Assembly: GCA_963933925.1 (NCBI GenBank)
Contig: CAWVWU010000001.1
Span: 1,231-65,230, forward strand
Reading direction: 5' to 3'
DNA from: an uncultured Puniceicoccaceae bacterium
GTDB taxonomy: Bacteria > Verrucomicrobiota > Verrucomicrobiia > Opitutales > Opitutaceae
Length of the DNA: 64,000 nt
Shown piece by piece: positions 7,757 to 51,289 of this stretch. Numbering within the stretch: the stretch's first letter is position 1; the number at the start of each line of letters is the position of its first letter. The notes beneath the pieces are model-generated. The model saw only the letters and a list, made by a program, of their open reading frames with translations. It did no database searches and was not told the origin of the DNA. Made by a program: the position numbers and the translations under genes.

Positions 7757-7820
7757 CTCTTCGATGGGCTCAGGATCTACGAGGGTGTGTTTTTTTTAAC
7801 CACGGAAGGGGTGCTGTGAA

Positions 7821-8017
7821 TTTTTTAACCGCCCATCCGCTATGCGGATTCGAGGACGCTGAGAGGGGGAGGTACTCTGATTTTGGGATCGAATCTTCAA
7901 TTTGTAATTTTCATTTACCGCTTGGTGGTGTTTTTCGGGGGCGGTGTATTGATTCGAAACTGACTCTTGAGATTGTTCCGGAGACATTATGTCAATAAAC
8001 ACAGTCTGAGCCCTTTG
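7821..8017 (+). repeat. Direct repeat B copy 1 (ends in J motif copy 6, 7990-8017)
   Basis: Ungapped match to 8529-8725 (offset 708); I count 7 mismatches over the first 178 nt. Confidence 0.95.
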
Positions 8018-8340
8018 TAGCCTACGGCGATAGTGGCGGATGGGTTGTAGTGAGCGGTATGGTAGTTTTTGCTGTCGGCGGCAGTTATTCGAAATTTTCG
8101 AACAACTGAATCTTCGGAGAGTTCATTGTCTTCGAAGATCTTCTTGATGTGATAGTTGATGGTGTGCGTTTTGACGTCGTAGAGCTCTCCCATCATCTTT
8201 TGGCTGAGCCAGATGTCTTCGTTCTCGTAGATCGCTTCGACGCCGCCTTCGCCAGTGGCGGCAATGAAGGTTAGGTACTCGACGGCTGAGGAGCGAACGA
8301 TGGAGGCGGGCTTCTTCTTTTTGTCGGGATCTTTGCTCAT
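7987..8340 (-). pseudogene. rhuM: RhuM-family (virulence RhuM-like) gene, 3'-truncated
   Basis: SSAVEYLTFIAATGEGGVEAIYENEDIWLSQKMMGELYDV...VRKFRITAADSKNY...AVGYK, then leaves homology inside J copy 6. Confidence 0.8.
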
Positions 8341-8341
8341 G

Positions 8342-8435
8342 GGAGGTTGTGTTTGAGGAAGCTTTGATCGAGGGCGACTCTATTGTCTTTGTCGAGGGTG
8401 ATTAGGTCTTGTTCGAAAAAAGGGGGAGTGAGTGG
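8342..8435 (+). repeat. Repeat C copy 2
   Basis: Matches 1850-1944; minus strand reads ...FFEQDLITLDKDNRVALDQSFLKHNLP*, with the stop overlapping the rhuM ATG (ATGA). Confidence 0.85.
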
Positions 8436-8528
8436 GGGAGAGTCGAAAAATGGACCTTCGATGTTTGAGTCCTTTCTTGTCAGGCGGTGACTTTGCTCAG
8501 TACAGGTCAGGATCTGCGAGTTGTGCTA

Positions 8529-8725
8529 TTTTTTAACCGCCCATCCGCTATGCGGATTCGAGGACGCTGAGAGGGGGAGGTACTTTGATTTTGGGATCGA
8601 ATCTTCAATTTGTAATTTTCAATTACCGCTTGGTGGTATTTTACGGGGGCGGTGTATTGATTCGAAACTGACTCTTGAGACTGTTCCGGAGATATCATGT
8701 CAATAAGTACAGCTTGCCCCCTTTG
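8529..8725 (+). repeat. Direct repeat B copy 2 (ends in J motif copy 7, 8698-8738)
   Basis: Ungapped match to 7821-8017; continues CGAGTGCAGGGAG. Confidence 0.95.
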
Positions 8726-8787
8726 CGAGTGCAGGGAGCACTTTAAGCGTTACTTATGTCAATGGATCGTATGTTGGATATTTGGTG

Positions 8788-9762
8788 CTATTTGTCGCAG
8801 CATTTTTTGTATTTCTTTCCGCTACCGCAGGGGCAGGGGTCGTTGCGACCGACTTTGGGGGTGTCTCTAATGAAGGGTTGGTTGGAGGTCTCAGTAGGTG
8901 TGGAAAATGTGGGAAGGGGTTCCTCGTCGAAATTGTCCTCTTCGAGGTCTTTGTCTTCATCGAGATCGGTATCTTTGAATATTTCGTCGTAGAACTCTTT
9001 TTCTTTTTTAGCGGAGGCTTCGGTGAAGCAGTGCCAGGTTGAGAGTTCTTCGTGGGGGTGTTTTAGGAGGCGAAAAGTATTATCGGGAGAGTCTATTGGA
9101 TCCTTCTTTTGGAAGGCTTCTTCTATCTGTTCTTGGGAGTAGAAAGGCATGAAAGGGAAGCCTATTTCGTATTGGTCTTTTATGTGGGGGATGTGCTCTT
9201 CGATGAGAAAGGAGGTGGAGAGCTGTATGGCTGTGTTGCGGAGAACTTCGGGGGCGTCTTTGAGGGTGGATGTGTAGAGAGAATCTAAGTACGAAGTGAG
9301 GATGTCTCGGGAGATTTGTTTGTGGTGATGCAGGATGCCGATGGCACCGAGGGCGGCACTTCGGGAGTATTCGGTGACCCCGTCGTCGTCGACAAGAGCA
9401 TAGAGCTCTAGGGGTGAATCGAAGAAGCAGGCTGCCAGGATTTTGTCGAAGCCTTCACTTATAATGTCGTCGAATTCGTCTTCGGCTTCTTGGCTGTGGG
9501 CTATTTTCGAGAGGACGGTGCGGGCGGAGGTTTCTTTAAAGTGGCCAAGGAGATAGAAGGCGTAGAAGTGAAGCATGTAGTCGTCTTCAAATAATTCGTC
9601 GGGGTCTTCGAGTAGACTGCGTTCGAGGGCTTTGATGAGGTGGGGGATCGCTTCATCTTTACGATCGATGACGGCTTGAATATCATCTGCGGGATAGGGC
9701 CGTTTTAGGGAATAGATTTTTTGAAGGAAATCCGGGAGAGATTCGTAGAATTCTAATGGCAT
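8788..9762 (-). CDS. DUF1186-domain protein with C-terminal SEC-C motif
   Basis: [17 protein letters not shown]-terminal domain, acidic linker, [20 protein letters not shown]. Confidence 0.8.
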
Positions 9763-9988
9763 GGGATGTGGATGGTAAAAGTGAATGAGAAGCGTTTGTA
9801 GGGGATGAAAGCAAATGGAACGAGATCGTCAATGAGGACTGCGGTTTTTCTATGAGGGGAAGAGCCTTTAAATTGAGATCATTTGTGTGAGTAGAGCGAG
9901 TTTGGAAAGGATTTGGGGGCATTGGCCATTACCGAAATGCGCGGGATTGATTTGGAGGTGTAAGATCCGTCGTCTCTCTATCGAGCTT

Positions 9989-10080
9989 CAGTCTTCGCTC
10001 AAAGAGCTACGCCCCGACAGGATGCCGAGACTGGGAGAGATTTGGTTTCAGATTTCGCTCTCTGAGCTACGACCGACAGG
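9989..10080 (+). repeat. Two tandem REP-like units, 60 nt apart
   Basis: CAGTCTTCGCTCAAAGAGCTACGCCCCGACAGG (9989-10021) and CAGATTTCGCTCTCTGAGCTACGACCGACAGG (10049-10080). Confidence 0.7.
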
Positions 10081-10194
10081 GTGCTATTGTTTTAACAGCT
10101 GAGGAGGCTAAGGGTCACGGAGGATCTTGATTCGGTTGCGGTTTTGGGGGAACCACGGATTGAGACGGATGTGGGTTTGAGCCTTTGAGAAAGG

Positions 10195-11199
10195 CTATTT
10201 GGATAGGTTATTTATTTCTGCTTCTAGTTCAGTTAATCCGGCAACGATTTTTTCAAACGATGGACGCCGCCCGAAGATCATATCCTGCATGGCTGAATAA
10301 TCTTTGCCCATTGCGTTGAGAATATTGCTTGGCGGTATTAGTTTAAAGGTGCTCGGTTTTGCGGCATCATAGTTTGCCCAGGTTCTCGGGTAGAATCTCT
10401 TCTTAAAAAGAACCACATCATGCAGAAGGGGTAAGTTGCCTAACGCGTCCGACTTCAGCTGTTTATCTGAAGCCATCAGATGGAGGTCGTAATAGTGTCG
10501 GGAGTATCGCTCGGGAATGACTGAAGATTCGGGGCGGTGCGCTTCGTGATGTAGGATAGTCGCCTTTTCCCAGAAGGTGCGTTCGGCATCGATTGCACGA
10601 ACAGGGCAGATCGGGTCGTCGAATTGATCTGGGAAATCCTCGGCAGCGTAGGGTGTAATCGTATGCTCCGAATGCGGCAGCCAAGATGCCAATGGACCGA
10701 TTTCCAATTGAATGTATGGCAAAAGGCCACTCGTATCCACTGTATGAGGATAGGCAATGCGAACGACATGCCCTTGATCCTTTTCACCGGCTTTCACTTC
10801 CAGTTCGCAATGCGAGCCGAGTGCGTCTCTCAGGAGCGGCAACATTTTTTTGGTGATATGCTCCCGGGCCTTTTCGTTCAGCTCCTCATTGAGCTTTTGC
10901 TGTTTCGTCTTTGACCGTTCACCCATCGGGTCTTGTTCGCCGCTCGCTATTCTCCAATCTAGAACCAAGTCGATGTCTTCGGAAAAGCGGTCGATGAGTC
11001 CGTAGACCTTCGATAGGCTGGTGCCGCCTTTGAAGATTAGTTGTTTTGAAAGCTCTGGGTGCTCGAACAAGTGCTTCAGCGTCCAGCAGACCCAGAAGTC
11101 CTTTTCCACGATGGCACTCGTTCCCATTCCGCGCTGTTACGCCGTCACCATAAACAGTTCATTGCGATCTTTCGCCGAGAGTGCCGCAACGCGATTCAC
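10195..11199 (-). pseudogene. abiEii: AbiEii-family nucleotidyltransferase toxin with in-frame TAA at codon 21
   Basis: GTG start 11199 overlaps the antitoxin TGA; MNRVAALSAKDRNELFMVTA*QRGMGTSAIVEKDFWV...FKGGTSLSK...RFSEDIDL...ERTFWEK...RHYYDL. Confidence 0.85.
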
Positions 11200-11807
11200 G
11201 ATGCGTTCTCCTTGGCTATGGTTCGTATGATATCAGACACCCAAGCGGGAGCCGTTTTTGTGTCTCGAAGGATTTTATCCCACTTGGGCGAGGTGATCGC
11301 GTCCTGAAGCTTCTTTCGAATGCCTGCAGTGATGCGATCTTGTCCCAAAGCCTTTAGCGCCTGAACGACTAGTTCGCTTTCGCCGTGTTTGAATCCGGAT
11401 TCTTTTAAGATCCGTTTTTTGAATGCCAGTTCTCGTTTTCCGATCGCAAAGGTTTTACTGGGCCCATCGGACAAGTAAATTGCTTGAGCTGGAACCTGTG
11501 TTGAAAGTCCCAGAATATTGAGTGCTGTATTTTCAGAAGGCTGTATGCGCCAACCCGATTTGCGTGCCAGGGCCTGGGCTACTTGCTTAATATCTGGTTC
11601 CATCGGACCGTTGATCAGTTTGCTTGTTCGAGGGTAGTCGTATAAGCCGAGCAGTACCCTTCGAATCGTCCCCTTGGCTTCCAAGTTCGTCAGCGCCTTG
11701 CGGGCAGAATCGTCGCTTCCAATATCCAAAAAATCGTTTTTAGAAAATGCCCAACCCCTATGATTGGCATAAATTCTCTTAACTATCTTGTTTTCAATGG
11801 ATTCCAT
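11196..11807 (-). CDS. AbiEi-type antitoxin (DUF6088-like)
   Basis: N-terminal HTH (ARKALTNL...IRRVLLGLYDYP), ALNILGLSTQVP; coupled to AbiEii. Confidence 0.8.
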   Translation of the reverse strand: MESIENKIVKRIYANHRGWAFSKNDFLDIGSDDSARKALTNLEAKGTIRRVLLGLYDYPRTSKLINGPMEPDIKQVAQALARKSGWRIQPSENTALNILGLSTQVPAQAIYLSDGPSKTFAIGKRELAFKKRILKESGFKHGESELVVQALKALGQDRITAGIRKKLQDAITSPKWDKILRDTKTAPAWVSDIIRTIAKENAS

Positions 11808-11902
11808 CGTTTTAATATGGTCTAAAAATTCACAGATTGCACGGCTATTTTGTGAAATTATTTAAGCGATTTTATACGGAGGATGGAGCCTGCGGTAAAT
11901 GA

Positions 11903-11930
11903 TGAATTATGAATGCTGAGGTCTGAGTTT
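11903..11930 (+). repeat. TGAA-led heptamer repeat x4
   Basis: TGAATTA TGAATGC TGAGGTC TGAGTTT. Confidence 0.6.
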
Positions 11931-12020
11931 TGTTTAGGTGTATTTTCAGAGGTGTTTCAATTGAGGGGGGAGGTGTTTTTTGTCTAGAAATTACCTTGGG
12001 AGCGGTGGGTTTGGAGGTTT

Positions 12021-12401
12021 AGAACCGTCCCGCTTAGGGGGAAATGCGAATACATGCGTACCGAGGCTGTAAGCCGACACATGAGGATCCCGCATGCGGG
12101 AGACGAAATATGATGAGGATGTTTTTGTTTAACCGTCCCGCTTAGCGGGATAAACTAAAGGCAGATTAGAAATTTGGTGGTTTTTTAACCGCCCATCCGC
12201 AATGCGGATTCGAAGACGCTACTTCGACTTTGCTCAGTACAGGTAAGGTCGCGAAGATTGAGAAGTGTTTTGGGGATTTCTTAGGTTGTGCTATTTTTTT
12301 TGACCACGAATTAGACGAATTAGACGAATCTTGATGTGGTTGTTATGGTTGTGTGTTTTTAACCGCTAAATTCACTAAAGGACGCTAAGGTCGCAAAGAG
12401 G
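12021..12401 (+). repeat. Array of five AACCRC + 9-10-nt periodic elements, three with nested hairpins
   Basis: Units at about 12021, 12127, 12181, 12290 and 12348, e.g. GACCACGAATTAGACGAATTAGACGAATC. Confidence 0.7.
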
Positions 12402-12606
12402 TATGTTTCTTTCTCTGGTTGTGGGTGTTTGCCCGTGCGTCGCCCTTTGGGATATGCAGGGTTCGAGCTTTGCTCGAAGGGGGTGAAGATGATGTCCATC
12501 GACGCACTTCGTTTGCTGCTTCGACTGAGCTCAGCACAAGTCAGGATTTTCGAGAGGGTGATCTGTTGGGCTTCTTTGCTTTGAAAATGTTCTTGGACGC
12601 TTTGGT

Positions 12607-12731
12607 GGGTGTCGTGTTCTTTGAGTTCTTTGGAGAGGATTAGGCGGTAGCGGGGATCAAGGCGATAGTTTGGGGCCTTTCGTTTTTTGTTATAACATTA
12701 CGAGCTGGCTCCTTTTTGCGAGCGGACCGAG
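12607..12731 (+). repeat. Direct repeat A copy 1 (ends in J motif copy 8, 12688-12731)
   Basis: ...TTTGAGTTC.TTGGAGAGGATTAGGCGGTAGCGGGGATCAAGGCGAT.GTTTGGGGCCTTTCGTTTTT..., matches 14389-14511. Confidence 0.95.
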
Positions 12732-12814
12732 TCCCGACCTTGTTTTACCTCAAGTATTATAGCCAAGGTTTCTCGCGAACGTTCAGGGAGTTCATCTTTT
12801 GAACTGAGTGCGTA

Positions 12815-14200
12815 TTAAGCTACGGAATCCAAAGTAGAAGTGATCGCGTCTAGGTTTTTCTGGGCGGTTTTGCGGAGGTCGGAGAACAGGTGGGCTTCTG
12901 CGATGAAACGGGACCAGAATCGTTGGGCAGCTTGAGCAGCGGGGATCCAGGTTGGGAGTTCTTCGGGGCGTGGAGGGTGGACTTCGATTGGGCGAGTGGG
13001 GAGGTCGCCGGTGCGTTGAGGAGCGTACCGCATCGGTAGCATGTCGTAAATGGGACAGAGCTTGAGGGGGAGTTCTGGAGTTAGGAAGAGGCTGAGGTTC
13101 CCTAGATGTCTGTCGGAGTTGCCAATGAGGCGGCCAAAGTGGTCGAAGGTGGCTATGTGGTCGGCGTCGGTTTGGCTAAGCCAGGATTTCTGGACGAGGG
13201 TTTGAGATGAGAGTGTCCAGGATTGGTCGAGTGGCTCGCCGAGTCCAGCGAGGACGGTGCGTAGCATGAGTGTGGGGATGCGGCCGTGACGTCCTGATCG
13301 GTCGAAGCGTTCGACCTCGAGAAAGGTTCGCTGATTTGTCGGGACAAATTCTGTCAGAGGGCTGGGTAAGCCAATATTGGCAAGTTCTTCGGAAGCGATG
13401 GCTTCGGCTTTTAGGAGGTCGGCCCAACGGCGACCTGCATCGGTTTGGAGTGAGCCGGAGAATTTTACGATTACGTGGCGGAAGCGATCGTCTGAGGTAC
13501 GAATGCAGGCTGTTAATTTGGGTTGTTCTCCGCCGGCGGAAGAGTTGGGGAGGTCGTCTCCTTCAGATATGTTGTGAGCGATGAGTTCGTAGCTTCTTCT
13601 TCGGTCGGCTTCGTCAATGAATGGGGACTGACTTTTAGCTTGGAGGAAAGTGTCTATCGCTTGGCCGCCAAGGATGAAATGTCCTGGGGTATCGTTGCCG
13701 TGTGAGAGGATTGCGGTAAGGGCTTCGTCGATATTCCAGTTTTCAGGATTGGTCCCGATCCTGAGAGTTGGGCCATGGGTGTGAGCGAGCAGGCGGCCGA
13801 GGTAGCCCTGTGGTCGCATGTCGTCTAGAAACCATGGGAGGTCAGGAAATAGATGGGGGTGGTCCTCGCCGTTGAGGAGGTAGGCGTAGTCTTCATTATT
13901 CCCTTTCGGCTCAAGATAGAATTCGCCTTGATGGAGTGCATGGAGTGTCGCAGCTACCTGTGCCTGGCCGGTCTTGTCGATTTGGTAGAGGTTCCAGCTC
14001 GAGTCCTTGTCGTTGAGACGCCGTTGGAGGGCGTAGCGGGCTCGGCGTGTTCGGCCGATTCGGAGGATGTTTTTGGAGGCTCCGAGTGCTCGGGAAACGG
14101 TGGGCTGGCTAACCCCTAGCTGGCGGGCGATGTCCGATGAGGACATTGAGCCTTGGCTGGCGAGGAGGCGTTCGATGGGTATTGTGTGTTTTTGATTCAA
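12815..14200 (-). CDS. yjjJ: HipA-like kinase with N-terminal HTH (YjjJ/HipH type)
   Basis: N-terminal HTH (DIARQLGVSQPTVSRAL), PWFLDDMRPQGYLGR, SSAGGEQPK, VKFS, ERFDR, GNSDRHLGN, PIYDMLPM. Confidence 0.85.
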   Translation of the reverse strand: MNQKHTIPIERLLASQGSMSSSDIARQLGVSQPTVSRALGASKNILRIGRTRRARYALQRRLNDKDSSWNLYQIDKTGQAQVAATLHALHQGEFYLEPKGNNEDYAYLLNGEDHPHLFPDLPWFLDDMRPQGYLGRLLAHTHGPTLRIGTNPENWNIDEALTAILSHGNDTPGHFILGGQAIDTFLQAKSQSPFIDEADRRRSYELIAHNISEGDDLPNSSAGGEQPKLTACIRTSDDRFRHVIVKFSGSLQTDAGRRWADLLKAEAIASEELANIGLPSPLTEFVPTNQRTFLEVERFDRSGRHGRIPTLMLRTVLAGLGEPLDQSWTLSSQTLVQKSWLSQTDADHIATFDHFGRLIGNSDRHLGNLSLFLTPELPLKLCPIYDMLPMRYAPQRTGDLPTRPIEVHPPRPEELPTWIPAAQAAQRFWSRFIAEAHLFSDLRKTAQKNLDAITSTLDSVA

Positions 14201-14388
14201 AATGAATAAAACTATGAATAGTTTAAGTCACTTATAGTCAATGATAATAGAGCTATATATGTATGTTATATGAATAGATTATTGAAGAAATGATATTTCC
14301 TCCCTTTGGAACATAAAAAATGTGCAAACGTACATTTTGAAACAAGACATTCGACGATCCTCTGACTGCCCGTGTAAGGGCTGGTACG

Positions 14389-14511
14389 GGGTGTAGTGCT
14401 CTTTGAGTTCCTTGGAGAGGATTAGGCGGTAGCGGGGATCAAGGCGATCGTTTGGGGCCTTTCGTTTTTGTTAAAACATTACGACCCGACCCCTTTTGCG
14501 AGCGGAGCGAG
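14389..14511 (+). repeat. Direct repeat A copy 2 (ends in J motif copy 9, 14469-14511)
   Basis: Matches 12607-12731. Confidence 0.95.
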
Positions 14512-14597
14512 CCTCTGCGTCGAGAGTTCAGACTCGTGCCAGGATTTGAGGGGCTGTTGCCGGTCGGTTGCCATCTATCAAGATTTAAGAGCTGTCC

Positions 14598-19901: not shown

Positions 19902-19952
19902 TTCGAGGAAACGATAGTGTGAAAAACTAGACGCGATAAGGAGGTTGGTTCT

Positions 19953-21251: not shown

Positions 21252-21281
21252 GCAATAAGGGCTCTTTTGTTCTTCCGGGGG

Positions 21282-22583: not shown

Positions 22584-22721
22584 CAGACTTCGACTTGTTG
22601 TGAGATACCGCTTTCGCGGTAGTTTGACTTGTGGTCAAAGAACGTAAAAGAGAGATAATCGCGCGTGTTTTGGTGGAAATCAAGGTTGATTACGTGCGAG
22701 GATGTTTATTTATTTTGTGTA

Positions 22722-24209
22722 ATGGCAACTGATACTTCCCCTGATCTTCTTTCCTCTGTCGCTAATTATTTTTCTCGTGCGTGGGAGGTGGCCTCGGGGC
22801 CGTTTAGCTCTGAGAACCTCATGGTGGAGCTGGGGGCGATTGGAGGGGCGTTTGCCTTGGCGATTGTACTCTCACTGGTGTTGAGGCCGCTGTGTAATCG
22901 AATTACGGAGGCTATCGAGGAGCGGGATGACTGGATCGAAGGGATTGTTGATTGGCTGAGTGATAATTTGTTTAGGCTATTGCTGGCGTGTCTGTTGTGG
23001 TCGGCGTCGCTGGCGTTGGATTCGCATAGTGTGGGGTCGGTGGTTGTGGTTTCAGTCCCTGCGGAGTCTAGTGAAGCGGTGGTGACGGCTGCTGAAGGTG
23101 GGGCGGTGTTGGTTGAGCAGGGGCAGTCGATTCCGGGAGGGACCCGAGTTGTGGAGCGGAATTTTCTCTTGATTCGTGCGTTAGCGAGTTTGGCTACTTT
23201 GTTCTTTGTGTCGGGGGCACTGCCAACGCGAATGCTTTCGACTGCCTATTTTAAGGTATTCTTTTTTGTTTTGGCGATCGGACTTGTGTTGAATTTGGTG
23301 GGCCTTTGGGTACCGGTTCGAGACGGATTGAACGAGATTAAGCTGTTGCCAGTGAGTGAATCGACTGAGACGCGCGTTACGGTGCTGTCGTTGTTGAAGG
23401 GGATTTTGGCCATCATGTTGATGATACCTGCGTGTCGTGGGCTTTTGTCTCTTTTGGATCGTCGTGTTGAGAAGATGGACGCGGTTTCGCCTGTATTGCG
23501 TGTTCTGATTTCCAAGTTTATCTCGGTCTTAGTCATTATTTTGGCGGTGCTGTTTGGAATTAGCTCCTTGGGTGTTAATTTGTCTGCTTTGGCGGTGCTT
23601 GGTGGTGCGGTTGGTTTAGGACTAGGGTTTGGTTTTCAGAAGGTGGTTTCGAATTTGATTAGTGGGGTGATTTTGTTGACGGATCGGTCGATTAAGCCGG
23701 GCGATGTAATCGAAGTGGGTACGACCTATGGGTGGATCAATAAGTTGAGTGCTCGTTATGTGTCGGTGTTAACTCGGGATGGAACGGAGTTTTTGATACC
23801 GAACGAGACATTGATTACGGAGAAGGTGACTAATTGGTCGTTCAGTGATGATCGGGTGCGGGTGCGGGTGAAGTTTGGAGCATCGTATAATGCTGATCCG
23901 CGCGAGGTTATGGCTATGGCAGTTGAGGCGGGCAGGGCTTGTAAACGTGTTATTCCGGAGAAGGAACCAGTGTGTTGGATGCTTGGCTACGGTGATAGTT
24001 CGATAGATTTTGAGTTAAGAGTTTGGATACGTGACCCTGCAGAGGGGATTGGTAGCTTACGTAGTGAGATATTGTTACGACTTTGGGATATGTTTAAGGC
24101 GCGTGGAATTGAGATACCGTTTCCACAGCGTGATTTGCATATTCGTAGTGGGCTGCCGGCGAAAGGGGTATCTCGTGAAGAGTTTGGATCCACGAATAAA
24201 CGCCGATAG
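22722..24209 (+). CDS. mscS: MscS-family mechanosensitive channel
   Basis: GAVGLGLGFGFQKVVSNLISGVILL.DRSIKPGD, IPNE, GDSSIDFEL, IEIPFPQRDLH; ATG 22722 preferred. Confidence 0.9.
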   Translation: MATDTSPDLLSSVANYFSRAWEVASGPFSSENLMVELGAIGGAFALAIVLSLVLRPLCNRITEAIEERDDWIEGIVDWLSDNLFRLLLACLLWSASLALDSHSVGSVVVVSVPAESSEAVVTAAEGGAVLVEQGQSIPGGTRVVERNFLLIRALASLATLFFVSGALPTRMLSTAYFKVFFFVLAIGLVLNLVGLWVPVRDGLNEIKLLPVSESTETRVTVLSLLKGILAIMLMIPACRGLLSLLDRRVEKMDAVSPVLRVLISKFISVLVIILAVLFGISSLGVNLSALAVLGGAVGLGLGFGFQKVVSNLISGVILLTDRSIKPGDVIEVGTTYGWINKLSARYVSVLTRDGTEFLIPNETLITEKVTNWSFSDDRVRVRVKFGASYNADPREVMAMAVEAGRACKRVIPEKEPVCWMLGYGDSSIDFELRVWIRDPAEGIGSLRSEILLRLWDMFKARGIEIPFPQRDLHIRSGLPAKGVSREEFGSTNKRR

Positions 24210-24336
24210 ACACGGGATTTGTTGGCTTGTGTTTTTCTTGCTCACGAAGTTCACGAATATGCACGAAGACTGTGGGGGAGAATCAACACGGATATTATTG
24301 GGGCACTGTAACCTTTCCTGAATGTGGCGATGAGCC

Positions 24337-32400: not shown

Positions 32401-32734
32401 AGAGTATGTTCTCTAGAGTATCGGAGCGAGTGCTCTAATGTTTATGACGAATTTGGTAAAAAGGATTGAATCAACCGGATTTCACGGATGATAGCGTTCA
32501 TCCTCTTTGGAAAACCCTGTAAAAAGCAGAATTACTGAAAAGGGAAAAGCGTTTAACGTTTTTTTGCAATTCGAAACTGTAGCATGAGGCGTGGATTGTG
32601 AATTTTTCTACGTTTAGAGGGTATGTTGGTATTTTGATCGTGTTGGGAAGCAGGATACGGTTGTGTTTACCTGTTCTTTTCGAACCGCATGGGTTGTCTC
32701 CCTAAAATGGTTTGCTTTTCGAGCGGTGGAGAGA

Positions 32735-38854: not shown

Positions 38855-38868
38855 TTGGGTATCATGTT

Positions 38869-39017
38869 GGTGCTATTTGTTTTTTTAACCACAAAAGGCA
38901 CAAGAATCACAAAAGATTAGGTTGTGCTTTTGTTTAACCGCTGAGAATTCGGAGAGTTTCTTGGGTTGTGCTCTGTATTTAACCGCTAATGAATGCCAAT
39001 GGATGCGAATGTTTTTG
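38869..39017 (+). repeat. Tandem array of three GGT(T)GTGCT..TTTAACCRC + periodic-tail units
   Basis: Units 38869-38919, 38920-38963 and 38964-39017. Confidence 0.75.
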
Positions 39018-39024
39018 GGTGTGG

Positions 39025-40041: not shown

Positions 40042-40090
40042 GGAAGGAGCGAATAGTTGGCAGATTTTTGGCGTCTGTCGATAGGGGAAA

Positions 40091-40125
40091 TGAAGATTGA
40101 TTTGTGAATGTTGGGTAGTGAAATT
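40091..40125 (+). repeat. TG-led heptamer repeat x5
   Basis: TGAAGAT TGATTTG TGAATGT TGGGTAG TGAAATT. Confidence 0.55.
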
Positions 40126-40184
40126 CTTTTGAGGGAATCGTTCTTGAAATGGATCAAGAGGCTGTCTTGATCGTTTTTCAGATA

Positions 40185-41924: not shown

Positions 41925-42064
41925 GGGGAGGTTTTTCGAATGGCTATGTTTTCCTATTTTTATAGACAGAGTTACAACTTTTCTGTTTTTGTGAATTACC
42001 GGATGGGTCCTCGAGGCGATTATTGAGCCTCTCCCGACCGAATTTATTTGTGAGGCGAAGCAAT

Positions 42065-43375: not shown

Positions 43376-43478
43376 CCTGTTTCGATCCAGAGCGTTCCTG
43401 TCAAACGACTAGAACATTAGAATGCTGATCTACTATTTCGATGAGGTTCGAAAGGACCGGATTGACAACGTGAAATGG

Positions 43479-44024
43479 TCAATTGGGAATTATATTGGTG
43501 GGGGTGCCGTCTATGGTGGATTGGTTTTTTTCTTTCCAGTAGTTGGTGATACCTTCGTCGCCTTTGGCGTCGGACCATTTGCGGAGGGTGTCGCGTTCGC
43601 CTTGTAGTTCCATTAGAGGGACGGCGTAACCGCAGGAGGTTTGAACGGTGTCGATATCGACAATGAATATTTGACGCTTCCCGTGTTGTTCGTTCCAGAG
43701 AGAACTATATTGGTTCCATTCCTTGTCGTGTGTATGGAGTACTTTGGCGGTGCCGTAGACGCGTAGGATGAGAGGGGCCTTTTCGAAGGAGCACCACATG
43801 ATGGTCATGCGTTCGTTCTCTTGGATGTGTCCGGCGGTTTCGTTCCCACTTCCTGTCATGTTGAGCCAGGCGATACGTTTTGGAGCGAGGACCTTTAAGC
43901 TGTCCATGCCTTTGGGCGATAGGTTGATGCGACCTTCTTCGAGAGCGGTGGCTACGAAGAAAATCGCTTGTTTGTCGATGAATGCAGTGTGCTTTTCTGT
44001 GAGTTCAGGGAATTGTTCGGCCAC
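43479..44024 (-). CDS. Pyridoxamine 5'-phosphate oxidase-like FMN-binding protein
   Basis: FFVATA, NLSPKG, TGSGNET, VQTSCGYAVP; GTG 44024 preferred. Confidence 0.85.
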   Translation of the reverse strand: MAEQFPELTEKHTAFIDKQAIFFVATALEEGRINLSPKGMDSLKVLAPKRIAWLNMTGSGNETAGHIQENERMTIMWCSFEKAPLILRVYGTAKVLHTHDKEWNQYSSLWNEQHGKRQIFIVDIDTVQTSCGYAVPLMELQGERDTLRKWSDAKGDEGITNYWKEKNQSTIDGTPTNIIPN

Positions 44025-44053
44025 GGCTTGAAGTGTGAAATGGAAATTGGGGG

Positions 44054-44663
44054 TTAGCCTGCTTTGCTGGAGGCGGCCCAGATGTTGATGTCGCCTTCTT
44101 TTGCGTAGTGGTCGATTGCGGCGAGCTCTTCGGAAGTGAAGGTTAGGTTGTTGAGGGCTTCGACGTTTTCTTGGATTTGGCTGGGCTTGCTTGCTCCGAT
44201 GAGGGCTGTTGTTACGACGGGGTCGCGGAGTACCCAAGCGAGGGCCATTTGAGAGAGGGTTTGACCGCGTTTTTCTGCGATTGAATTGAGGCCTCGGATA
44301 CGTTCGATATTCGCTTCGCTGAGGAAACCGTCTCGGAAGGAGGGGGCTCCGCTGGCTGCACGTGAATCTTCCGGGACTCCTTTGAGATATTTGTCGGTGA
44401 GCATTCCTTGAGCGAGCGGGGAAAAGACGATGCTTCCCATCTTGGCTTCTTTCATTGCGTCCATTACATCGCCTTCTATCCAGCGGTTGAGCATGGAGTA
44501 GGAGGGTTGATGGATGAGGCAGGGAGTGCCGAGGTCTTTAAGAATCGCTGCGGCTTCGCGGGTCTTTTGAGCAGAGTCCGAGAGAAAGTGCGGGAAGCTG
44601 GAGGCCGCTGTTGCCGCAGCGGCGGTAAGTCATGGAGTCGTAGCGATTGGAAGCAGGTGTCAT
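44054..44663 (-). pseudogene. Aldo-keto reductase (YghZ/GPR type) with a large internal deletion and frameshift
   Basis: MTPASNRYDSMTYRRCGNSGLQLPALSLGL joined out of frame to AQKTREAAAILKDLGTPCLIHQPSYSMLNRW...FSPLAQG.LT.KYL. Confidence 0.85.
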
Positions 44664-44670
44664 AGGATAA

Positions 44671-44691
44671 TGAATGGTGAAAAGTGAAATG
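44671..44691 (+). repeat. TGAA-led heptamer repeat x3
   Basis: TGAATGG TGAAAAG TGAAATG, immediately upstream of the AKR start. Confidence 0.6.
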
Positions 44692-44902
44692 GAGAGAGGG
44701 TTTAACTGAAGAATGTAATGATTACATGTCTTGTCACATTGTTCCCCGAGTGTCGATCTCTGGTCTTGGTAGGAGAAACGGAGTGACGAATGAAATGACA
44801 TTTTTATCGCAAAATAATGCGAATTTTTAAGACGAAGCCGAGGAAGACCGGCTTCGTTACTTCCACTAGACCAATGTTCCCCCCGAGGCCAAGGCTATGT
44901 CG

Positions 44903-46406
44903 CTATAGGGCTCTTTTTGGGGCGGGGATTCGAATTTTTTGAGTGAGGTCGGTTCCCGGGCCGATTGAGGGCCAGGGGAGATCGCCCCAGAAGTCTGGTT
45001 TTTGGGTGAAATAGATGGAGGCTGGGAGGGGAGCCTCGTCGGTCGGATCTTTGTGGTCGGGCTTGGAGAGGGTTATGTTCTCTAGGAGGCTTGTGTGGTG
45101 AACGGTGATGTTGGGTTGGATCGTACCTTCTATGAGAACGTTTCCGATAATCCTCATATGGTGAGAATGGTCGCGAACTTTTATGTAGGTGAGGACTTGG
45201 TTGCGGAAGAAGGTGGTGTCAGGGCCAATGGGTCCCCAGTGGTCGGCGATGTCGATGTATTCGACGATGTTGCCCTCGAAGAGGTTTTGGTAGGGGTAGT
45301 GGCCGTGTAGGGATATATCGCAAATGAGGGGTTTGTCTAACGGGGTGCGACGACGGGTGTGGGAGTAGTTGTAGGCGAATACGTTTCCATTGGATCCTTT
45401 TTTTGCCATCATGGAGTGGCGAAGGTCGTGAAGGATGTTGTCGATGTAGAGGCAGTCGACCGCCATGTTTCCGGCAACCATTCCGTATCCGTTTCCGCCT
45501 GATCCGTAATTGAATCCGTGACTGACTTCGGTGCCTTGAACGGTGATGAATCGACTGTGGTTTACCCAAATATGACCGCGAGACGCCATGTATGATTTGC
45601 AGTCTTTTACCCACGAGTTTAGGGCATTTTCGAAACCAATGGCACTGTCTGTTGAAGGGTCGATGCGTTCAATACTGAGGTTTTCAACGCCTGCATTTTC
45701 CACGGGAGTGATCTTTCGGATACGTGGATTGAGTTCGAGATAGTAGTTGAGACGAAGAGGAGTATCTATGCTGATGCCTTCCTCGGTGATGTTGGTGATT
45801 GTGATGATCTGTGCGAGGGATTGTTGACCGTAGCTTTTGTTCCAGCGACTTTCTGTGTACATGAGGTGGGGATCGTTTTCTGAGAAAACTTCGATCATGT
45901 CGCCGATTTCGAGTCCCACTCTTTGGTCGGTTGCGAGGAGGGAGTCGCCTTTGTAGTGGATCTTAGAGAGAGGGCGACCAACGGCCTCCATTTGACCTTC
46001 GAATCTGATTGAGCCATGAGCGGGGCGTTCCGGCAGGGAATATTTCGTCGGGAAGGGTTAAGTTAAAACGAAGGTGGGTTCCTTGGGATCCTCTAAGAAC
46101 GGTACCACTCCTCATTTTAAGATGTTGAGTGAGTTCGTAGGTTCCTTCTGGGAGGAGTACGGCACCGGGAATCTTGATAGAATCGAGTGCGTCTTGGATG
46201 CAACCAGCGGGATCGTCGGATTTCGTGAGCTTTTCTTTCGAAATCGAAATCTGAGTCGCGACCGTGGGGATGCCTCCTCGAACGCCAGCGTCCCACTTCG
46301 GGAGGTCTTCAAATTTCCATGGTGGTGGAATTATCGGTGCTGCGATGGAACTTAGAGGGAGTGATCCGATGAGGAAGGATAGAGTCGCTAGAATTGAAAA
46401 ACGCAT
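44903..46406 (-). pseudogene. Secreted pectate-lyase-like beta-helix protein split by a +1 frameshift
   Basis: Signal peptide, DAGVRGGIP, IQDALD, LLPEGTY, VLRG in frame 1; continues HGSIRFEGQMEAV in another frame after the C4 run at 46022-46025. Confidence 0.7.
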
Positions 46407-46635
46407 AATTGACAAATTTGCGGTGAATTCGGCGTTTTTCAAGTCAGGTCGGCTCGAATATTGGGAGATGAGGACTTAGACGTATTTTTTAAATGAAGTG
46501 GAGGTGCTGTGGACTGTGTTCGGGTGTTGGTGCTTTCAATTTCATTACCTGGTTGCGAATGGTATGCGGATATTGCCGTGCTACCTCGTTTGGTTGTGGT
46601 GGGTGCCGACGTAGCGTCAGCGTTCCAGGGTGGGA

Positions 46636-49600
46636 CTATTTGATTTGGTAGACTTCGGCGAGTGCGATGCCTTCTCCGGATTTGTTTTGGACGATGACCG
46701 TGTAAAGTCCTTCGGGGAGTTGAACGAATAGTGCGGCGTCTTTTGATTCTTTTTGGAGTTCCATGGCTCCGACGTAGTCGGAGGAGACTTCGGCGAGGGA
46801 AGCAGAGTCACTCAGTTGCCAATCATCGTTGGTTCCTACGAGTTCGAAACCGCCTTCAGGCAACATCCGAAATACCGAGAGAATTGGGTCCTCGAGGTAT
46901 TCAATGACGCCATGCTCAGAAAGGGTAGGACCTACTGCACGAATTAGCAGTGTGGTGGGATCTGCACTTTCTAAGTAGAAGCCTGCAATGAGAGAACCTT
47001 CGTCGACTGAGCTCACATGTGCTCTGGTGGAGATGTTTAAGAGATTTTCTCCGTAGATTTCTGCGAGGGCGATATTTGAAGAGCTGCCCTCTGGGTAGGT
47101 GATCGCAGTGTATGCTCCCGGTGCCAAGGTAGTGAGTTCGGCGGCGTCCTTTGAGTTTTCATCCAGGTCGAAAGCTCCGCGTTCGAGGGAAGCGGCTTTT
47201 ATGGATCCTGCGTTTGGGCTTTCGTTCCAATTGTCATTTCCGATGATCATTGGATTTTCTGAGCTGGTATCCTCGTTGAATTGATAGAGTTCGAATCGAG
47301 GGTTTTCTTCGAAATTCGCGATGTTTTGGTTGGCTAGGCTAGGGCCGACGCTGCGGATTAGGATGTTTGAATCCTCGTCGCCGTCGATCACGAAGCCTGC
47401 GATAGTGAGGCGTTCGCCTTCGCCTAGTTTACTTCGGGAGGACAGATTGAGTAGGCCTCGTTCCGGCTTTAGATTGTTGGTCATCCGTTGGACTTTGAGG
47501 AAGGATTCGAGGCCGACGCGGGCACCGAGTTTGCGTCCGATGAAATCGTCTGCGGGGACGTGGATTCCGCCGTAGAGTCGAGACTCTCCTGCTTCGTCGG
47601 CAGCGTCGTAGTAAGTGGCCCATTGTAGGACGAGGTCTTCGCTGGGCCCCGCTTCGAATTCTAAAAATCCGTTTTTAGGGAATGTGTATTCGCCGAGTCC
47701 TCCCGGGAAGAAGGGGGATCCTGTGAGTAGGGTGAGGACTTCGGCCCCGGCACGGCTGAAGGTACTGTGTCCTGAAACGTATGCGGCAAATGCGGGTGTG
47801 ACGAAGGTGCTTCGCTGGTAGGGGAACCAATCGATTGCGAGAATCCAGTCGACGCCCCCGACTTGTGTGTAGTGGTCTTCTGGTTCGCCGGCCCACGATA
47901 GGATGGCGATTTCGCCAATATGGTCGGCGAGGTGATCATGTCTCCCTCCTGATGCGGCACTGTTATCCGTGATGACTTCGATTAGATTTTCAATGAGAGG
48001 TAGACCGTTTTCGCTGTATGAGGGGAGGGAGGAGTCTGTTGACTGTCCAAAGCCTCCCATGTAGCGGATCATTGATATTGGTCGGCTGTAGTCGTATTGG
48101 CGTTTTAATGTCCATGCGGCAACCGCACCATCGTGCATCGCTCCGTTGAGGGTGAGGTAGGCACGGATTTCCCATTCGAGAGGATTTATTTCGTCGCCTT
48201 GACCTGCGAAGCGGCGTTCGAAGTCGGGGTGTTCGGATATTTGATTTAGGAGGGTGTTCCAATGGCCTGGAGGCGTTTCGGAAGCTGGGCCGTCTGCCCA
48301 AAATTCTGCGAGGATGCGTCCGTAGTCCGCTCGCTTTACGCTATTCTCTGCGTAGGGCTGCATTGTCGTGGGATTGAAGGCACGTCCTTGTCCGTTGTTG
48401 GTGGCAAGGTCGTTGTTGAGATGAGCTCCGGGGGAGATGTCGATGTATTCACCATCTGACGGGTCGAGGGCAGCTGAGTAGCGGATGACCTCGACTACGG
48501 CATCTACGAATTCCTGATGAGTGTCGCCGCCGAACTGAGGGGGAGCACCCGGGTCGATCGCGATCGTATTTGAGGAGGTCTTGGAAATCGCGAAGGTGTC
48601 GACTTCTCTCCAGTTGACGCCGAGGAAGGTTTGAATGGATTCGCCTACTTGGATGCCGTTTTGAAGGACTAGGTATTCGAAGGCGAGAGGTTGCCAGCGA
48701 TTGAGATCGACCATGTCGGTACCGCTGAGTTCGAGGAGAAGTTCCTCGTTTATGGCTTCGTATCCGCTGGTGTCGGCATAGCCATTTTCTTCATTGGATC
48801 CGTCTTGGAGGGCGATTTCAAGGATGGTGGTACCGATGCGATTTCCGATCGCTTCCGCTGTATCTCCGATAATTCCTTGGTTTGTTGGATCGTATCCAAG
48901 CTGTTCCATCAGCCAGGTGAAGCCAAAGAGGGAGGAGTCCTTGCCGGGGCTATTTTTGTAGCGCTCGCTGAGTACGCGGAACGTAGCGTAGCTGATGACC
49001 TTTTTCTGGAATGCTTGGCGTTCTTGTTCGTCTGTCGGTACCTCGAACTCTTCTTTGACGAATGCCGGTTCGACCTCTAGCCATGCATTGTGTTCGCAGG
49101 CCCAATAGGCATCCCACATGGCAGCGGAGGTGTGGTAGAGGTTTCGGCTGTGGACGGTGGGATCTGGATAGTCTTTGCGGATTGCGTCGAGGAGAAAGTC
49201 GTTCCAGAGGCGGGCTACAGTGTGGCTTGATACGTCGAGACTGGTGGAGACGGTGGCTTCCGCTGAATAGGTGGTTCCTTTTGAATTGATGAATTTGGCA
49301 CGATAGCTTCCCGCGTCATATGGGGTTAGCTTTTTGATGTGAAAGGTTGCTCCCGTGGCTCCTGGGATTGGGACTCCGTCCTTTTCCCAGACGATTACCG
49401 GTGCGGGTTGTCCATTGCCTTCGGCAAAGAGATCGAGTCGATCACCGACTGAAAAGGATCCGCCGACAGGGGCGGTCGTGACTGTGGGTACGAATTGTTC
49501 GACGAATTGTTCGACGAGGTTCAGTACTTGGTTGGCTGCGGTGTCTGTGAGCGTTTGTACGACGCCTGAGGGCCATGTGACTTCGATGGTGTCCGCGACA

Positions 49601-51096
49601 GATGCGGTACCGAGTCCGAAATGGAGGTAGGGTTCGCGTTGGCCGATGTAGGCGTTGGTTGGGTTGTAGAGGTGGGTCTGCGTTTTGTCTCCGGTAGTGA
49701 GCTTTACGATGCAGCCGTATCCATCTCGGTTGGCAACTGTGCCTTGGAATGAGAGTCTGAGGTAGTTGTTTCCGTTTGTGGAGGCGTCACTTTGGTAGAG
49801 GATAGGGTGATCACCGGTGTTGGTGATAAAGAGGTCTTCGTCGCCATCCTTTTCATAGTCAAATACGACAATGGCTTTTCCTAGCTTTCTATCATTAATT
49901 CCTGAGCCGATTGTTTTGTTGATGAACGTTCCATCTGATTGCTTGACTAAGAGGGTTGTTGGATCGTCAACGGCATCAACATAAGGGTTGGTGTCGGGAT
50001 TTGTCCCCGCTGAGACAATCGATCCGTTTGTTACTATGAGGTCTGGATCTCCGTCGTTGTCGTATTCGAAAAACGAGGCACCCCAGCCCCAATCTGTACG
50101 TGCAACTCTAGCCTCTGTAGCTGATTCTCTGAATCGTCTGTTTCCTAGGTTTTTGTAGAGCTTGTTCCCGGTGTGAGTTCCATCGCGGACATTAGAGAAG
50201 CGGTCATAGATGGAGGTTATGAAAATATCCAGTTTGCCGTCTTGGTCGTAATCGACGATGGCTACACCCATCCCGTTTTCGTCTAATCCCATTCCTGAGG
50301 CGTCGGTGCTTTCGGTGAAGGTTCCGTTGCCATTGTTCCAGTACATCTGGCTGGTTCCGAAGTCTGAGACGAGTACCAGATCGGGCCATCCGTCACCATC
50401 AAGGTCTCCCCACCCACTAGAGAAACCAAAGTGCATGTTTCGACTTTTGGGTTGGGTTAGGCCTGCTTGTTCTGTCACGTTTTCGAAGTGGGCGGCTTGA
50501 TCCTCTCCTTTATTGTGCAAAAGCACGGAGTGCTTTACATTGTCAGCATTACTCGGAACTCCCCACTCGGAGACGTAGATGTCTAGGTAGCCATCGAGAT
50601 CAAAATCAACAACGCCCACGCTGAATCCACGGTGTGGCTCTAGGGTCGTTTCTATTGCAGCTCCCCGTGACAGGGCTTCTTCTGAAAAGACTCCCGCACC
50701 GTTGTTGATGAATAGATAGTAGCGGTTCCCTAATACGGGAATTATAAAAATGTCTTGGTCGCCGTCGTTGTCGAAGTCTCCTGTGCCGAATCCACCGACG
50801 TCTTGCACACTGCTGATTCCTCGAGTCGAGGCTTCTTCGCTGAAGGTGCCATCGCCTTGGTTTAAAAAGAGGAGGGGGGAGGCGTTGGCCCTTGCTGTTA
50901 GGATGTCTGTGTATCCATCTCCGTTTACATCGACAGCCGTCGCTCCCGCGTGCTTTGAGCTCTTAGATTCTGACTGTAAATGGTCTAGGCCGGATTCGAC
51001 AGTTATGTCGCTGAAATTGGCCAGAAGGTTGGATGGTATAAGCAGGCTGCTTGTAAGGAATAGATAAGTTGTTAGTTGAAGGAAAGGAGGGCGCAT
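46636..51096 (-). CDS. Secreted FG-GAP/CRTAC1 + ASPIC-UnbV + Ig-like + vanadium-dependent haloperoxidase + Opitutae-type C-terminal domain
   Basis: DVNGDG/DFDNDGD repeats; LHFGLG..IEVTWPSG; WEKDG..DAGSY; K....RP (WTLKRQYDYSRP), YVSGHS, SRLYGGIH; LLNLSSR/LLNISTR. Confidence 0.85.
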   Translation of the reverse strand: MRPPFLQLTTYLFLTSSLLIPSNLLANFSDITVESGLDHLQSESKSSKHAGATAVDVNGDGYTDILTARANASPLLFLNQGDGTFSEEASTRGISSVQDVGGFGTGDFDNDGDQDIFIIPVLGNRYYLFINNGAGVFSEEALSRGAAIETTLEPHRGFSVGVVDFDLDGYLDIYVSEWGVPSNADNVKHSVLLHNKGEDQAAHFENVTEQAGLTQPKSRNMHFGFSSGWGDLDGDGWPDLVLVSDFGTSQMYWNNGNGTFTESTDASGMGLDENGMGVAIVDYDQDGKLDIFITSIYDRFSNVRDGTHTGNKLYKNLGNRRFRESATEARVARTDWGWGASFFEYDNDGDPDLIVTNGSIVSAGTNPDTNPYVDAVDDPTTLLVKQSDGTFINKTIGSGINDRKLGKAIVVFDYEKDGDEDLFITNTGDHPILYQSDASTNGNNYLRLSFQGTVANRDGYGCIVKLTTGDKTQTHLYNPTNAYIGQREPYLHFGLGTASVADTIEVTWPSGVVQTLTDTAANQVLNLVEQFVEQFVPTVTTAPVGGSFSVGDRLDLFAEGNGQPAPVIVWEKDGVPIPGATGATFHIKKLTPYDAGSYRAKFINSKGTTYSAEATVSTSLDVSSHTVARLWNDFLLDAIRKDYPDPTVHSRNLYHTSAAMWDAYWACEHNAWLEVEPAFVKEEFEVPTDEQERQAFQKKVISYATFRVLSERYKNSPGKDSSLFGFTWLMEQLGYDPTNQGIIGDTAEAIGNRIGTTILEIALQDGSNEENGYADTSGYEAINEELLLELSGTDMVDLNRWQPLAFEYLVLQNGIQVGESIQTFLGVNWREVDTFAISKTSSNTIAIDPGAPPQFGGDTHQEFVDAVVEVIRYSAALDPSDGEYIDISPGAHLNNDLATNNGQGRAFNPTTMQPYAENSVKRADYGRILAEFWADGPASETPPGHWNTLLNQISEHPDFERRFAGQGDEINPLEWEIRAYLTLNGAMHDGAVAAWTLKRQYDYSRPISMIRYMGGFGQSTDSSLPSYSENGLPLIENLIEVITDNSAASGGRHDHLADHIGEIAILSWAGEPEDHYTQVGGVDWILAIDWFPYQRSTFVTPAFAAYVSGHSTFSRAGAEVLTLLTGSPFFPGGLGEYTFPKNGFLEFEAGPSEDLVLQWATYYDAADEAGESRLYGGIHVPADDFIGRKLGARVGLESFLKVQRMTNNLKPERGLLNLSSRSKLGEGERLTIAGFVIDGDEDSNILIRSVGPSLANQNIANFEENPRFELYQFNEDTSSENPMIIGNDNWNESPNAGSIKAASLERGAFDLDENSKDAAELTTLAPGAYTAITYPEGSSSNIALAEIYGENLLNISTRAHVSSVDEGSLIAGFYLESADPTTLLIRAVGPTLSEHGVIEYLEDPILSVFRMLPEGGFELVGTNDDWQLSDSASLAEVSSDYVGAMELQKESKDAALFVQLPEGLYTVIVQNKSGEGIALAEVYQIK

Positions 51097-51289
51097 TATC
51101 TATATTCTCGATGGATTTGAATCAGGAACGGCCTTACTTGGCGAAAGGGCCGGCAATCTGGATATACTTATTTAAGTTTTATAACCGCGAATAAATGCAA
51201 ATAGATGCGAATGTTTTCGGGTTATGAGGGGGTGGCTATCGTTATGCGATCAGAGTATCGGGAAGTTACTGCTTCTACGATAGAGGTTT

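Follow-up and report, generated by a model that had tools for sequence, protein, structure and literature searches.

Short extragenic repeats that are tied to a small nuclease-type gene lying between inverted copies of the same repeat are known from the repetitive extragenic palindromic (REP) sequences, from the REP hairpins (REPINs) with their REP-associated tyrosine transposases (RAYTs) and from the bacterial interspersed mosaic elements (BIMEs) (PMC3116915, PMC3337134, PMC3333891). Elements of the IS200/IS605 group excise from and insert into the lagging-strand template and exhibit an orientation bias (PMC5027513, PMC6006769). The current report deals with a family of dispersed repeats, referred to here as arms, that was examined in a window of 64,000 nucleotides (the whole stretch of DNA that was analysed: positions 1,231 to 65,230 of contig CAWVWU010000001.1, assembly GCA_963933925.1) from an uncultured Puniceicoccaceae bacterium of the Opitutales. 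An arm combines a T-run, the core AACCRC and a tail. Judged by their sequence, the copies in the window are single arms of a family that spans phyla and that in its full form is a hairpin, whether empty or with a nuclease gene in the loop; we assign them to this family because the same 23-mer, TTTAACCGCKAATGRAYGCKAAT, recurs across phyla and because inverted arms surround genes for proteins of the GxxExxY family. Their strongest feature, which is absent from the preliminary description of the window, is a near-total orientation on the G-rich replication strand, and this replication-strand polarity of the solo arms is the new part of the finding. A literature search found no description of arms around GxxExxY genes and no formal description of the family, which is apparently undescribed.

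All 16 of the sites originally listed were read directly, and the window was rescanned for the motif. The dispersed family that had been proposed from them is real, with 13 clear members, every one of them intergenic and on the + strand, and three degenerate copies on the same strand (Table 1); the positions first given were accurate to ~10 nt. The listed copy at 24189 is doubtful, as it falls inside the 3' end of the open reading frame (ORF) 22665-24209, and the sole non-intergenic copy that we recognize in the window lies at 24222, at the 3' end of a gene. Across the source genome (3.92 Mb in 362 contigs; G000, with its relatives labelled G001, G002 and so on), the exact words TTTTAACCGC and TTTTAACCAC occur 70 and 33 times, as compared with 3-16 times for 16 permuted or neighbouring control words, so that a motif scan bears out the enrichment that the preliminary description had expected; intergenic matches to TTTTAACCGC number 59, where 60 composition-matched permutations average 1.5. 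When each arm was counted once by the head pattern TTT(N)AACCRC, 246 unique matches were obtained, 154 of them in intergenic DNA, which represents 16% of the genome by a crude longest-ORF gene map; the density of matches is thus ~9-fold higher between genes than within them, and the genome contains at least 154 arms. These solo arms are interspersed with housekeeping genes, form clusters (index of dispersion 2.36) and range in state from intact to decayed. Since 23 of the 154 (15%, against 5.5% expected) lie <300 nt from a contig end, the arm repeats break up the assembly and are more numerous than the count suggests. Tens to hundreds of extragenic copies, often clustered and of modular build, are also what one finds for the REP/REPIN-RAYT and BIME families.

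The layout of an arm consists of a G/T-rich spacer, a T tract, the core, an optional insert module and a tail. The spacer, GATTKGGTTGTGYT, precedes about half of the copies, the part GGTTGTGCT stands ahead of only about half of the heads, and the GGTTGTG spacer is species-specific (35 copies here and at most one in each of 30 relatives). The T tract measures 3-12 nt, the core AACCRC has a minor variant TACCGC, and the insert modules include CCATCCGC-N3-GCGGATTCGAG, ACCGAGG...CGACACTTGAG...GCGACGAA and GACGGAG..GGAGATGGCG.AGCAA. Tails sort into ~8 classes, with GCGAATGRAT (10 nt) and CGCAAAGNN, CGCTGAGNN, CACAAAAGG and CACGGATNN (9 nt) in their repertoire. The tails with repeats at 9-10 nt, which had been ascribed to every copy, do exist: the tail autocorrelation has a maximum at lag 9 (0.39, against 0.25 for shuffled tails) and a weak one at lag 10. 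They are not universal, with strong 9- or 10-nt periodicity in 31 of the 154 arms, the remainder being decayed or having head and tail separated by non-periodic insert modules. Tandem arms are frequent and place different tail classes next to each other, as for example at 38869-39011. As had been stated earlier, such arrays are not of the CRISPR type in the layout of their repeats: the heads vary in T-run length and sequence, no array exceeds three units, and the would-be "spacers" are drawn from a few recurring classes. In an Akkermansiaceae metagenome-assembled genome (locus L085, ~4088, - strand), an arm was encountered with eight perfect tandem GAACGCGAAT units, which indicates that an arm can gain units, probably through slippage.

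In the source genome, as in G004, the asymmetry of the strands is very strong and of the replication type. The contigs of the source genome mostly have a GC skew of ±0.1-0.35 and a TA skew of ~0.1-0.2, the GC skew of the window being ~+0.19. Their G-rich strand accounts for only 55% of the coding DNA, and it encodes EF-Tu, EF-G/S12, the S10 operon, IF2, DnaK, GroEL, AtpD, RecA and rpoB; judged by skew and by the location of such highly expressed genes, this strand is the leading strand. Unique intergenic arms are distributed 139 to 13 in its favor (p = 8e-28), and ~91% of the head matches read 5'-T-run-AACCRC-tail-3' on it. For the exact words the counts on the G-rich and the other strand are 59:0 (TTTTAACCGC) and 24:0 (TTTTAACCAC), or 83 of 83 together, and for patterns drawn from the tails only they are 73:0, 33:0, 24:1, 22:4 and 9:2. 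Head matches inside genes, which are taken as chance hits, exhibit no strand bias (42:49), and sixty composition-matched words run 21:71, so that composition predicts the opposite polarity. The polarity is kept in all four arrangements of the flanking genes (24:4, 48:2, 19:2 and 24:4); arms are ~2 times commoner between genes of the lagging strand, although these offer no more intergenic DNA. Since the orientation of arms relative to neighbouring genes is mixed, a cis-regulatory role for the flanking genes is excluded.

The pattern of T-run, AACCRC and tail is strongly enriched in two other genera of the bacterial family as well (145 matches against 16 for the control in G004, 99 against 22 in G005), and the same grammar of head and units recurs in both of these genomes and in other phyla. 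The genome of G004 is complete, and 67 of the 70 matches listed for its first 2.08 Mb are on the - strand, where the sampled skew is mostly negative (-0.06 to -0.35, with one 20-kb sample at +0.12); nearly all of the remaining matches have the + orientation, the sign of the skew changes between 2.02 and 2.20 Mb, and rpoB again lies on the G-rich strand. A 20-kb sugar-utilisation cluster of the same genome (L040, 1.13-1.15 Mb), with genes for RhaT, two solute-binding proteins, a CoA-transferase, a RuBisCO-like protein and a four-carbon acid sugar kinase-like protein, has one to three antisense arms in most of its gaps, or ~16 distinct arms. At 80 loci from unrelated genomes, solo arms favor the G-rich strand by 29:11, and by 16:3 where |skew| exceeds 0.08, whereas paired arms are unbiased (23:19); the solo arms lie in more skewed contexts. 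To our knowledge, no mobile DNA other than the IS200/IS605 elements offers a well-studied precedent for such polarity. These elements share with the arms a strong replication orientation bias, which in the arms would place the active strand on the template of the lagging strand. The likeness is one of behaviour and does not establish membership; the family described here has no TnpA or TnpB, its solo arms have no subterminal hairpins, and it lacks a defined target of four or five nucleotides.

Among the matches listed for it, the 23-mer TTTAACCGCKAATGRAYGCKAAT, which comprises head and tail, was found in >118 stretches, where the number expected by chance was estimated at well under one. These represent Verrucomicrobiota, Planctomycetota, Desulfobacterota, Acidobacteriota, Spirochaetes, KSB1 and others, with hosts that include Opitutaceae, Akkermansiaceae, Limisphaerales, Kiritimatiellales, Planctomycetaceae, Pirellulaceae and Solibacteraceae; unit 3 of the tandem array in the window (core at 38981) differs from the 23-mer by one mismatch. 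Such near-identity of arms across phyla is not a trait of REP sequences. In the loci with the 23-mer, an inverted partner accompanies 41 of 79 arms at a distance of up to 650 nt, and most of the pairs are short empty hairpins, while six of them enclose a GxxExxY ORF. The paired forms have TTAA at both stem bases, which would agree with a target-site duplication but is no proof of one because TTAA is its own reverse complement; no target-site duplication was identified among the arms of the source genome. Gene-carrying and gene-less versions with common inverted ends are also seen, in other genomes, in the manner of miniature inverted-repeat transposable elements (MITEs), which derive from DNA transposons by internal deletion; unlike MITEs, the copies here are one-ended, and neither terminal inverted repeats nor target-site duplications were identified for them.

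GxxExxY (TIGR04256 / PF13366) is a very large protein family for which we know of no function, and the Protein Data Bank gave no sequence match to the protein. The preliminary description had stated a link between such heads and GxxExxY genes and had pointed out that the window contains no such gene, and it was right on both counts. Two TIGR04256 genes are present elsewhere in the genome (contigs C294 and C198), both with arms upstream. The gene on C294 is directly preceded, before its ATG, by T6-AACCGC and a tail and is followed, after its stop codon, by a convergent AACCGC and tail, the two arms being of different classes and non-matching (z 0.9); the copy on C198 has matching inverted arms. 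Similarly, when 15 GxxExxY genes from this genome and its relatives were sampled, matching inverted arms were found at 12 (z 5-20), and in 11 of these 12 the 3' arm begins no more than ~4 nt from the stop codon. Adjacency to a TIGR02436 four-helix-bundle gene, which had been suggested in the same breath, could not be found, as a profile search detected no such gene in the genome. The units of the arms vary with the locus (CACGGAG, CACAGAG, CGCAAAG, CGCGAAG or CACAGAT). At the gatA-gatB junction, a GxxExxY cassette is found in five genera (loci L026, L027, L030, L033 and L034; relatives G002, G016, G018, G008 and G015) with arms that have diverged (CACGGAG or CACAGAG) and yet match each other at each locus, which points to a long vertical persistence of the cassette, in the course of which the two arms have changed in concert.

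A small resident gene of the nuclease type, bordered by inverted copies of a repeat that apparently persists in its lineage, brings to mind the REP/REPIN-RAYT systems, from which the arms differ in that the linked gene specifies a PD-(D/E)XK protein of the GxxExxY type and not a Y1 HUH transposase, and in that an arm is made of tandem 9-10-nt units and not of a single palindrome. The only Y1-like ORF that came to light (344 aa, C129 1160-1339 (-), a weak PF01797 match of 24 bits with an HFH motif) has no flanking arms, and a RAYT/IS200 link was rejected. Another comparison is offered by the ORF-carrying intervening sequences of bacterial 23S rRNA genes, in which a small ORF is located in the loop of a long inverted repeat. 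There, too, a small ORF in an inverted-repeat loop is inserted into a host transcription unit, but the sites of the arms are intergenic and not in rRNA helices, and the ORF family is a different one, TIGR02436 being absent.

The arms of the source genome depart from the paired form. No more than four of 233 matches are accompanied within 600 nt by an inverted partner (against the 41 of 79 elsewhere), and the folding of five copies or arrays of the window as single-stranded DNA was not above that of shuffled sequences (z -1.1 to +1.0), which agrees with the original view that these are not REP-like hairpins. Next to integron attC sites and CALIN arrays, in which folded sites with R''/R' cores stand in co-oriented cassettes near an IntI gene, what was observed of the solo arms is this lack of a fold and their location among housekeeping genes. 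The GATTKGGTTGTG stretch that follows the tails was considered as a partner arm eroded by C-to-T changes and was rejected on inspection by eye, because a decayed partner would be class-specific and the stretch is alike after every class of tail. Distribution among the relatives is patchy: most members of the bacterial family have no enrichment, and the pattern is not enriched in the same-genus genome G001, with which DNA identity is 66-70% and synteny is lost. The nearest homologue of a flanking gene is only 59% identical. Three other assemblies of the same organism are identical, with the array at 38869-39011 unchanged.

Patchiness among relatives, clustering, enrichment at contig ends and a range of copies from intact to decayed amount to the behaviour of a selfish repeat. 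On balance we think it probable, if by no means certain, that the copies are gene-less solo arms of dispersed, non-autonomous repeats of a REP- or MITE-like nature, the spread or survival of which is coupled to replication, likely through single-stranded DNA. The complete form would be an inverted pair of arms that makes a hairpin, either empty or enclosing a gene of ~125 aa for a putative GxxExxY PD-(D/E)XK nuclease, and each arm would comprise a T-run, (A)AC(C)RC and two to four units approximating CRCNRAK at a spacing of 9-10 nt. In this Opitutales genome the family would have expanded to the at least 154 mostly unpaired arms that fill intergenic gaps much as REP, BIME and MITE sequences do. 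The T-run, AACCRC and tail as read on the leading strand is the sequence of the lagging-strand template, and we infer that arms are copied, inserted or retained in a strand-specific manner that is coupled to the replication fork. If IS200/IS605 is taken as a guide, the most likely route would involve a single-stranded intermediate, located on the template of the lagging strand, in which T-run-AACCRC-tail is the active strand, with the GxxExxY nuclease as a candidate for the enzyme acting in trans. Solo arms might then come about through strand-specific insertion of single arms, through one-ended copying from the head or through a polar loss of one arm from hairpins.

Several observations weigh against this explanation. 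Neither insertion nor excision, target-site duplication or polymorphism was seen in comparisons for which the assemblies are identical and the nearest relative is too distant. Every substrate of single-strand transposition known to us has a hairpin, and the solo arms have none. Two GxxExxY genes face the at least 154 arms of ~8 classes, the copy number of GxxExxY genes in the relatives does not follow the abundance of arms, and the action of the protein on arms is a candidate role that is suggested by analogy. The polarity could stem from selection on a function and not from a mode of copying, and the gene calls were made by the crude longest-ORF method. In G004, moreover, dnaA (31-1380) lies 2 Mb from the switch from negative to positive skew and near the opposite switch; because dnaA is so far from the origin inferred from skew, the term "leading strand" is based here on skew and on the strand in which highly expressed genes lie.

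The selection just mentioned would apply if arms were functional polar sequences of the chromosome, for example protein-binding arrays that the replisome, a translocase or a recombination enzyme would read in one sense only, resembling the FtsK-orienting polar sequences (KOPS), Chi or single-strand initiation (ssi) sites, and kept on the leading strand by their usefulness. The extremity of the polarity in the exact words, its independence of gene orientation and its recurrence in G004 and in unrelated genomes are all to be expected of such sites; the 9-10-nt phasing would suit binding on one face of the helix, and C-rich triplets are kept although C is otherwise strongly depleted in their strand. 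KOPS and Chi are polar 5-8-mers that occur densely through coding DNA, and they share with the arms the location of >90% of copies on the leading strand, whereas the arms are heterogeneous modules of 35-90 nt that are intergenic only, clustered and, where matched inside genes, unbiased. A selected site would also not be expected to have ~8 unrelated classes of tail and many decayed copies, to lack enrichment in the same-genus genome and most members of the family, or to exist elsewhere as unpolarised inverted pairs around a selfish-looking gene, and we regard this explanation as unlikely. If the arms were instead small transcription units, either small-RNA genes or promoters co-oriented with replication, their polarity would equal that of the genes for ribosomal proteins and translation factors, as it does, and the TGCTATTTT of some heads resembles an extended -10 element. 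Scans with consensus sequences detected no sigma-70-like promoter or intrinsic terminator at any head, however; the only Rfam match at the gathering score was the transfer-messenger RNA (tmRNA), and in 7600-12600 none was obtained even at E <= 1; no stable fold was predicted; the >150 copies are heterogeneous in sequence; and their mixed orientation relative to neighbouring genes leaves no room for cis-acting leaders or untranslated regions. A terminator is contradicted as well by the paired forms, in which the T-run precedes the stem and does not follow it. Transcription units thus seem to us quite improbable.

The landing-pad interpretation with which the preliminary description ended, namely that arms are empty attachment sites for GxxExxY cassettes, can draw on the GxxExxY genes that stand directly behind such heads and on the arms of different classes at C294, which look as if a gene had landed between pre-existing arms. 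The arms nevertheless match and co-vary between loci in 12 of the 15 genes, as would the ends of a single unit, and those of the gatA-gatB site shared by five genera have diverged in step. Copies with a gene have two inverted arms that hug it, while the copies in the window are single and partnerless; the arms outnumber the two genes by far, and no pair of occupied and empty sites was found at any core. Little probability, about as little as for transcription units, can be given to this interpretation. That there is no discrete element, and only low-complexity, G/T-rich intergenic DNA produced by the extreme skew, hardly deserves credence: a species-specific stretch, GATTKGGTTGTGCT-Tn, is G/T-rich in the way that skew favors, but the composition of core and tails predicts the opposite strand, the core is enriched ~40-fold over composition-matched words, the identical 23-mer is found in other phyla and these very arms stand on either side of GxxExxY genes. 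As regards core and tails, the permuted words, the in-gene matches, the cross-phylum 23-mer and this bracketing refute an artefact of composition.

A further step beyond the solo, replication-coupled repeats that we favor would be to regard the arms and the GxxExxY PD-(D/E)XK nuclease as an unrecognised mobile system that is coupled to replication, uses single-stranded DNA and has no HUH or DDE enzyme, with the single arm as the minimal unit that is copied or retained only on the lagging-strand template. We are inclined to doubt this proposal. If true, it would explain why solo arms follow the fork across phyla and why they take over genomes with an extreme strand asymmetry.

The individual copies of the window are listed in Table 1. 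The AACAGC variant of the head at 10094 was also seen on contig C222 of the same genome. The arm at 51172 is placed between a terminator-like hairpin (~51290-51325) and the start of the next gene, and the rest of the window is made up of a tmRNA gene and of ordinary genes, the majority of them on the - strand.

Table 1. Copies of the arm family in the window. Clear copies are cited by the first base of the AACCRC core, given in parentheses; the three degenerate copies are marked as such.
Feature	Positions	Strand	Composition
Truncated arm	7786..7816	+	T8 + AACCAC (7798) + GGAAGGGGTGCTGTGA
Arm with insert module C	7820..7868	+	T6 + AACCGC (7827) + CCATCCGC-TAT-GCGGAT hairpin + GACGCTGAGAGGGGGAGG
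Arm with module C	8521..8576	+	GTTGTGCT-A-T6 + AACCGC (8535); tail identical to that of the 7827 arm
Degenerate arm	10081..10124	+	GTGCTATTGTTTT + AACAGC (10094) + TGAGGAGGCTAAGGGTCACGGAGG (GAG-type units)
Arm with weak T-run	10141..10176	+	GAACCAC (10151) + GGATTGAGACGGATGTGG (GGAT-type units)
Long composite arm	12016..12110	+	AACCGT (12023) + CCCGCTTAGGGGG + ACCGAGG...CGACAC module
Arm	12121..12164	+	TGTTTTTGTTT + AACCGT (12131) + CCCGC-TTA-GCGGG hairpin + ATAAACTAAAGGCAG
Arm with module C	12178..12219	+	T6 + AACCGC (12187) + CCATCCGCAATGCGGATTCGAAGACGC
Arm	12285..12330	+	GGTTGTGCT-A-T8 + GACCAC (12302) + three 9-nt units (GAATTAGAC); period 9, 0.71 identity
Arm	12345..12401	+	GGTTGTGTGT5 + AACCGC (12361) + TAAATTCACTAAAGGACGCTAAGGTCGCAAAGAGG (AAG-type 9-nt units)
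Degenerate copy	24222..24272	+	TTGTGTTTTTCTTGCT + CACGAAGTT CACGAATAT GCACGAAGA; tail units, decayed head, no AACC core
Degenerate copy	32470..32497	+	AACCGG (32473) + ATTTCACGGATGATAGCG; no T-run
Three-arm tandem array, unit 1	38869..38915	+	GGTGCTATTTGT7 + AACCAC (38887) + AAAAGGCACAAGAATCACAAAAG
Three-arm tandem array, unit 2	38920..38956	+	GGTTGTGCTTTTGTTT + AACCGC (38936) + TGAGAATTCGGAGAG
Three-arm tandem array, unit 3	38964..39011	+	GGTTGTGCTCTGTATTT + AACCGC (38981) + TAATGAATGCCAATGGATGCGAATG (10-nt units)
Arm	51172..51213	+	AAGTTTTAT + AACCGC (51183) + GAATAAATGCAAATAGATGCGAATG (10-nt units)

Other repeats accompany the arms. Two direct repeats of ~197 bp (7821-8017 and 8521-8717) flank a short ORF (7987-8340), and arms can therefore be the 5' end of longer duplicated blocks, since both of these repeats open with a module-C arm (AACCGC-CCATCCGCTATGCGGATTCGAGGACGC...). 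Further short interspersed modules that adjoin arms, such as CCCTTCGACAAGCTCAGG and GGATCCGGCTTCGTT.CTCTACGCCGGGACA (6620-6655 in the window, and on many contigs of the genome), suggest a wider intergenic mosaic of repeats, comparable to BIMEs. A second and unrelated co-oriented repeat, AACATTACGACC...CC(T)TTTGCGAGCGGAGCGAG, is located just downstream of - strand genes (6940-6990, 12688-12731, 14469-14511 and other sites in 600-14500), and ~125-bp copies of it form direct repeats around the ORF 12815-14200.

For those who work with such genomes, the arms have practical consequences, in that they break assemblies and cause spurious low-complexity extensions at the N-termini of predicted proteins, and they could serve to mark the orientation of replichores in draft genomes of Verrucomicrobiota. 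For the GxxExxY family, this genome adds a mechanistic clue, which is the near-perfect orientation of unpaired arms with replication, here as well as in unrelated genomes, and which suggests that the substrate is single-stranded DNA at the fork.

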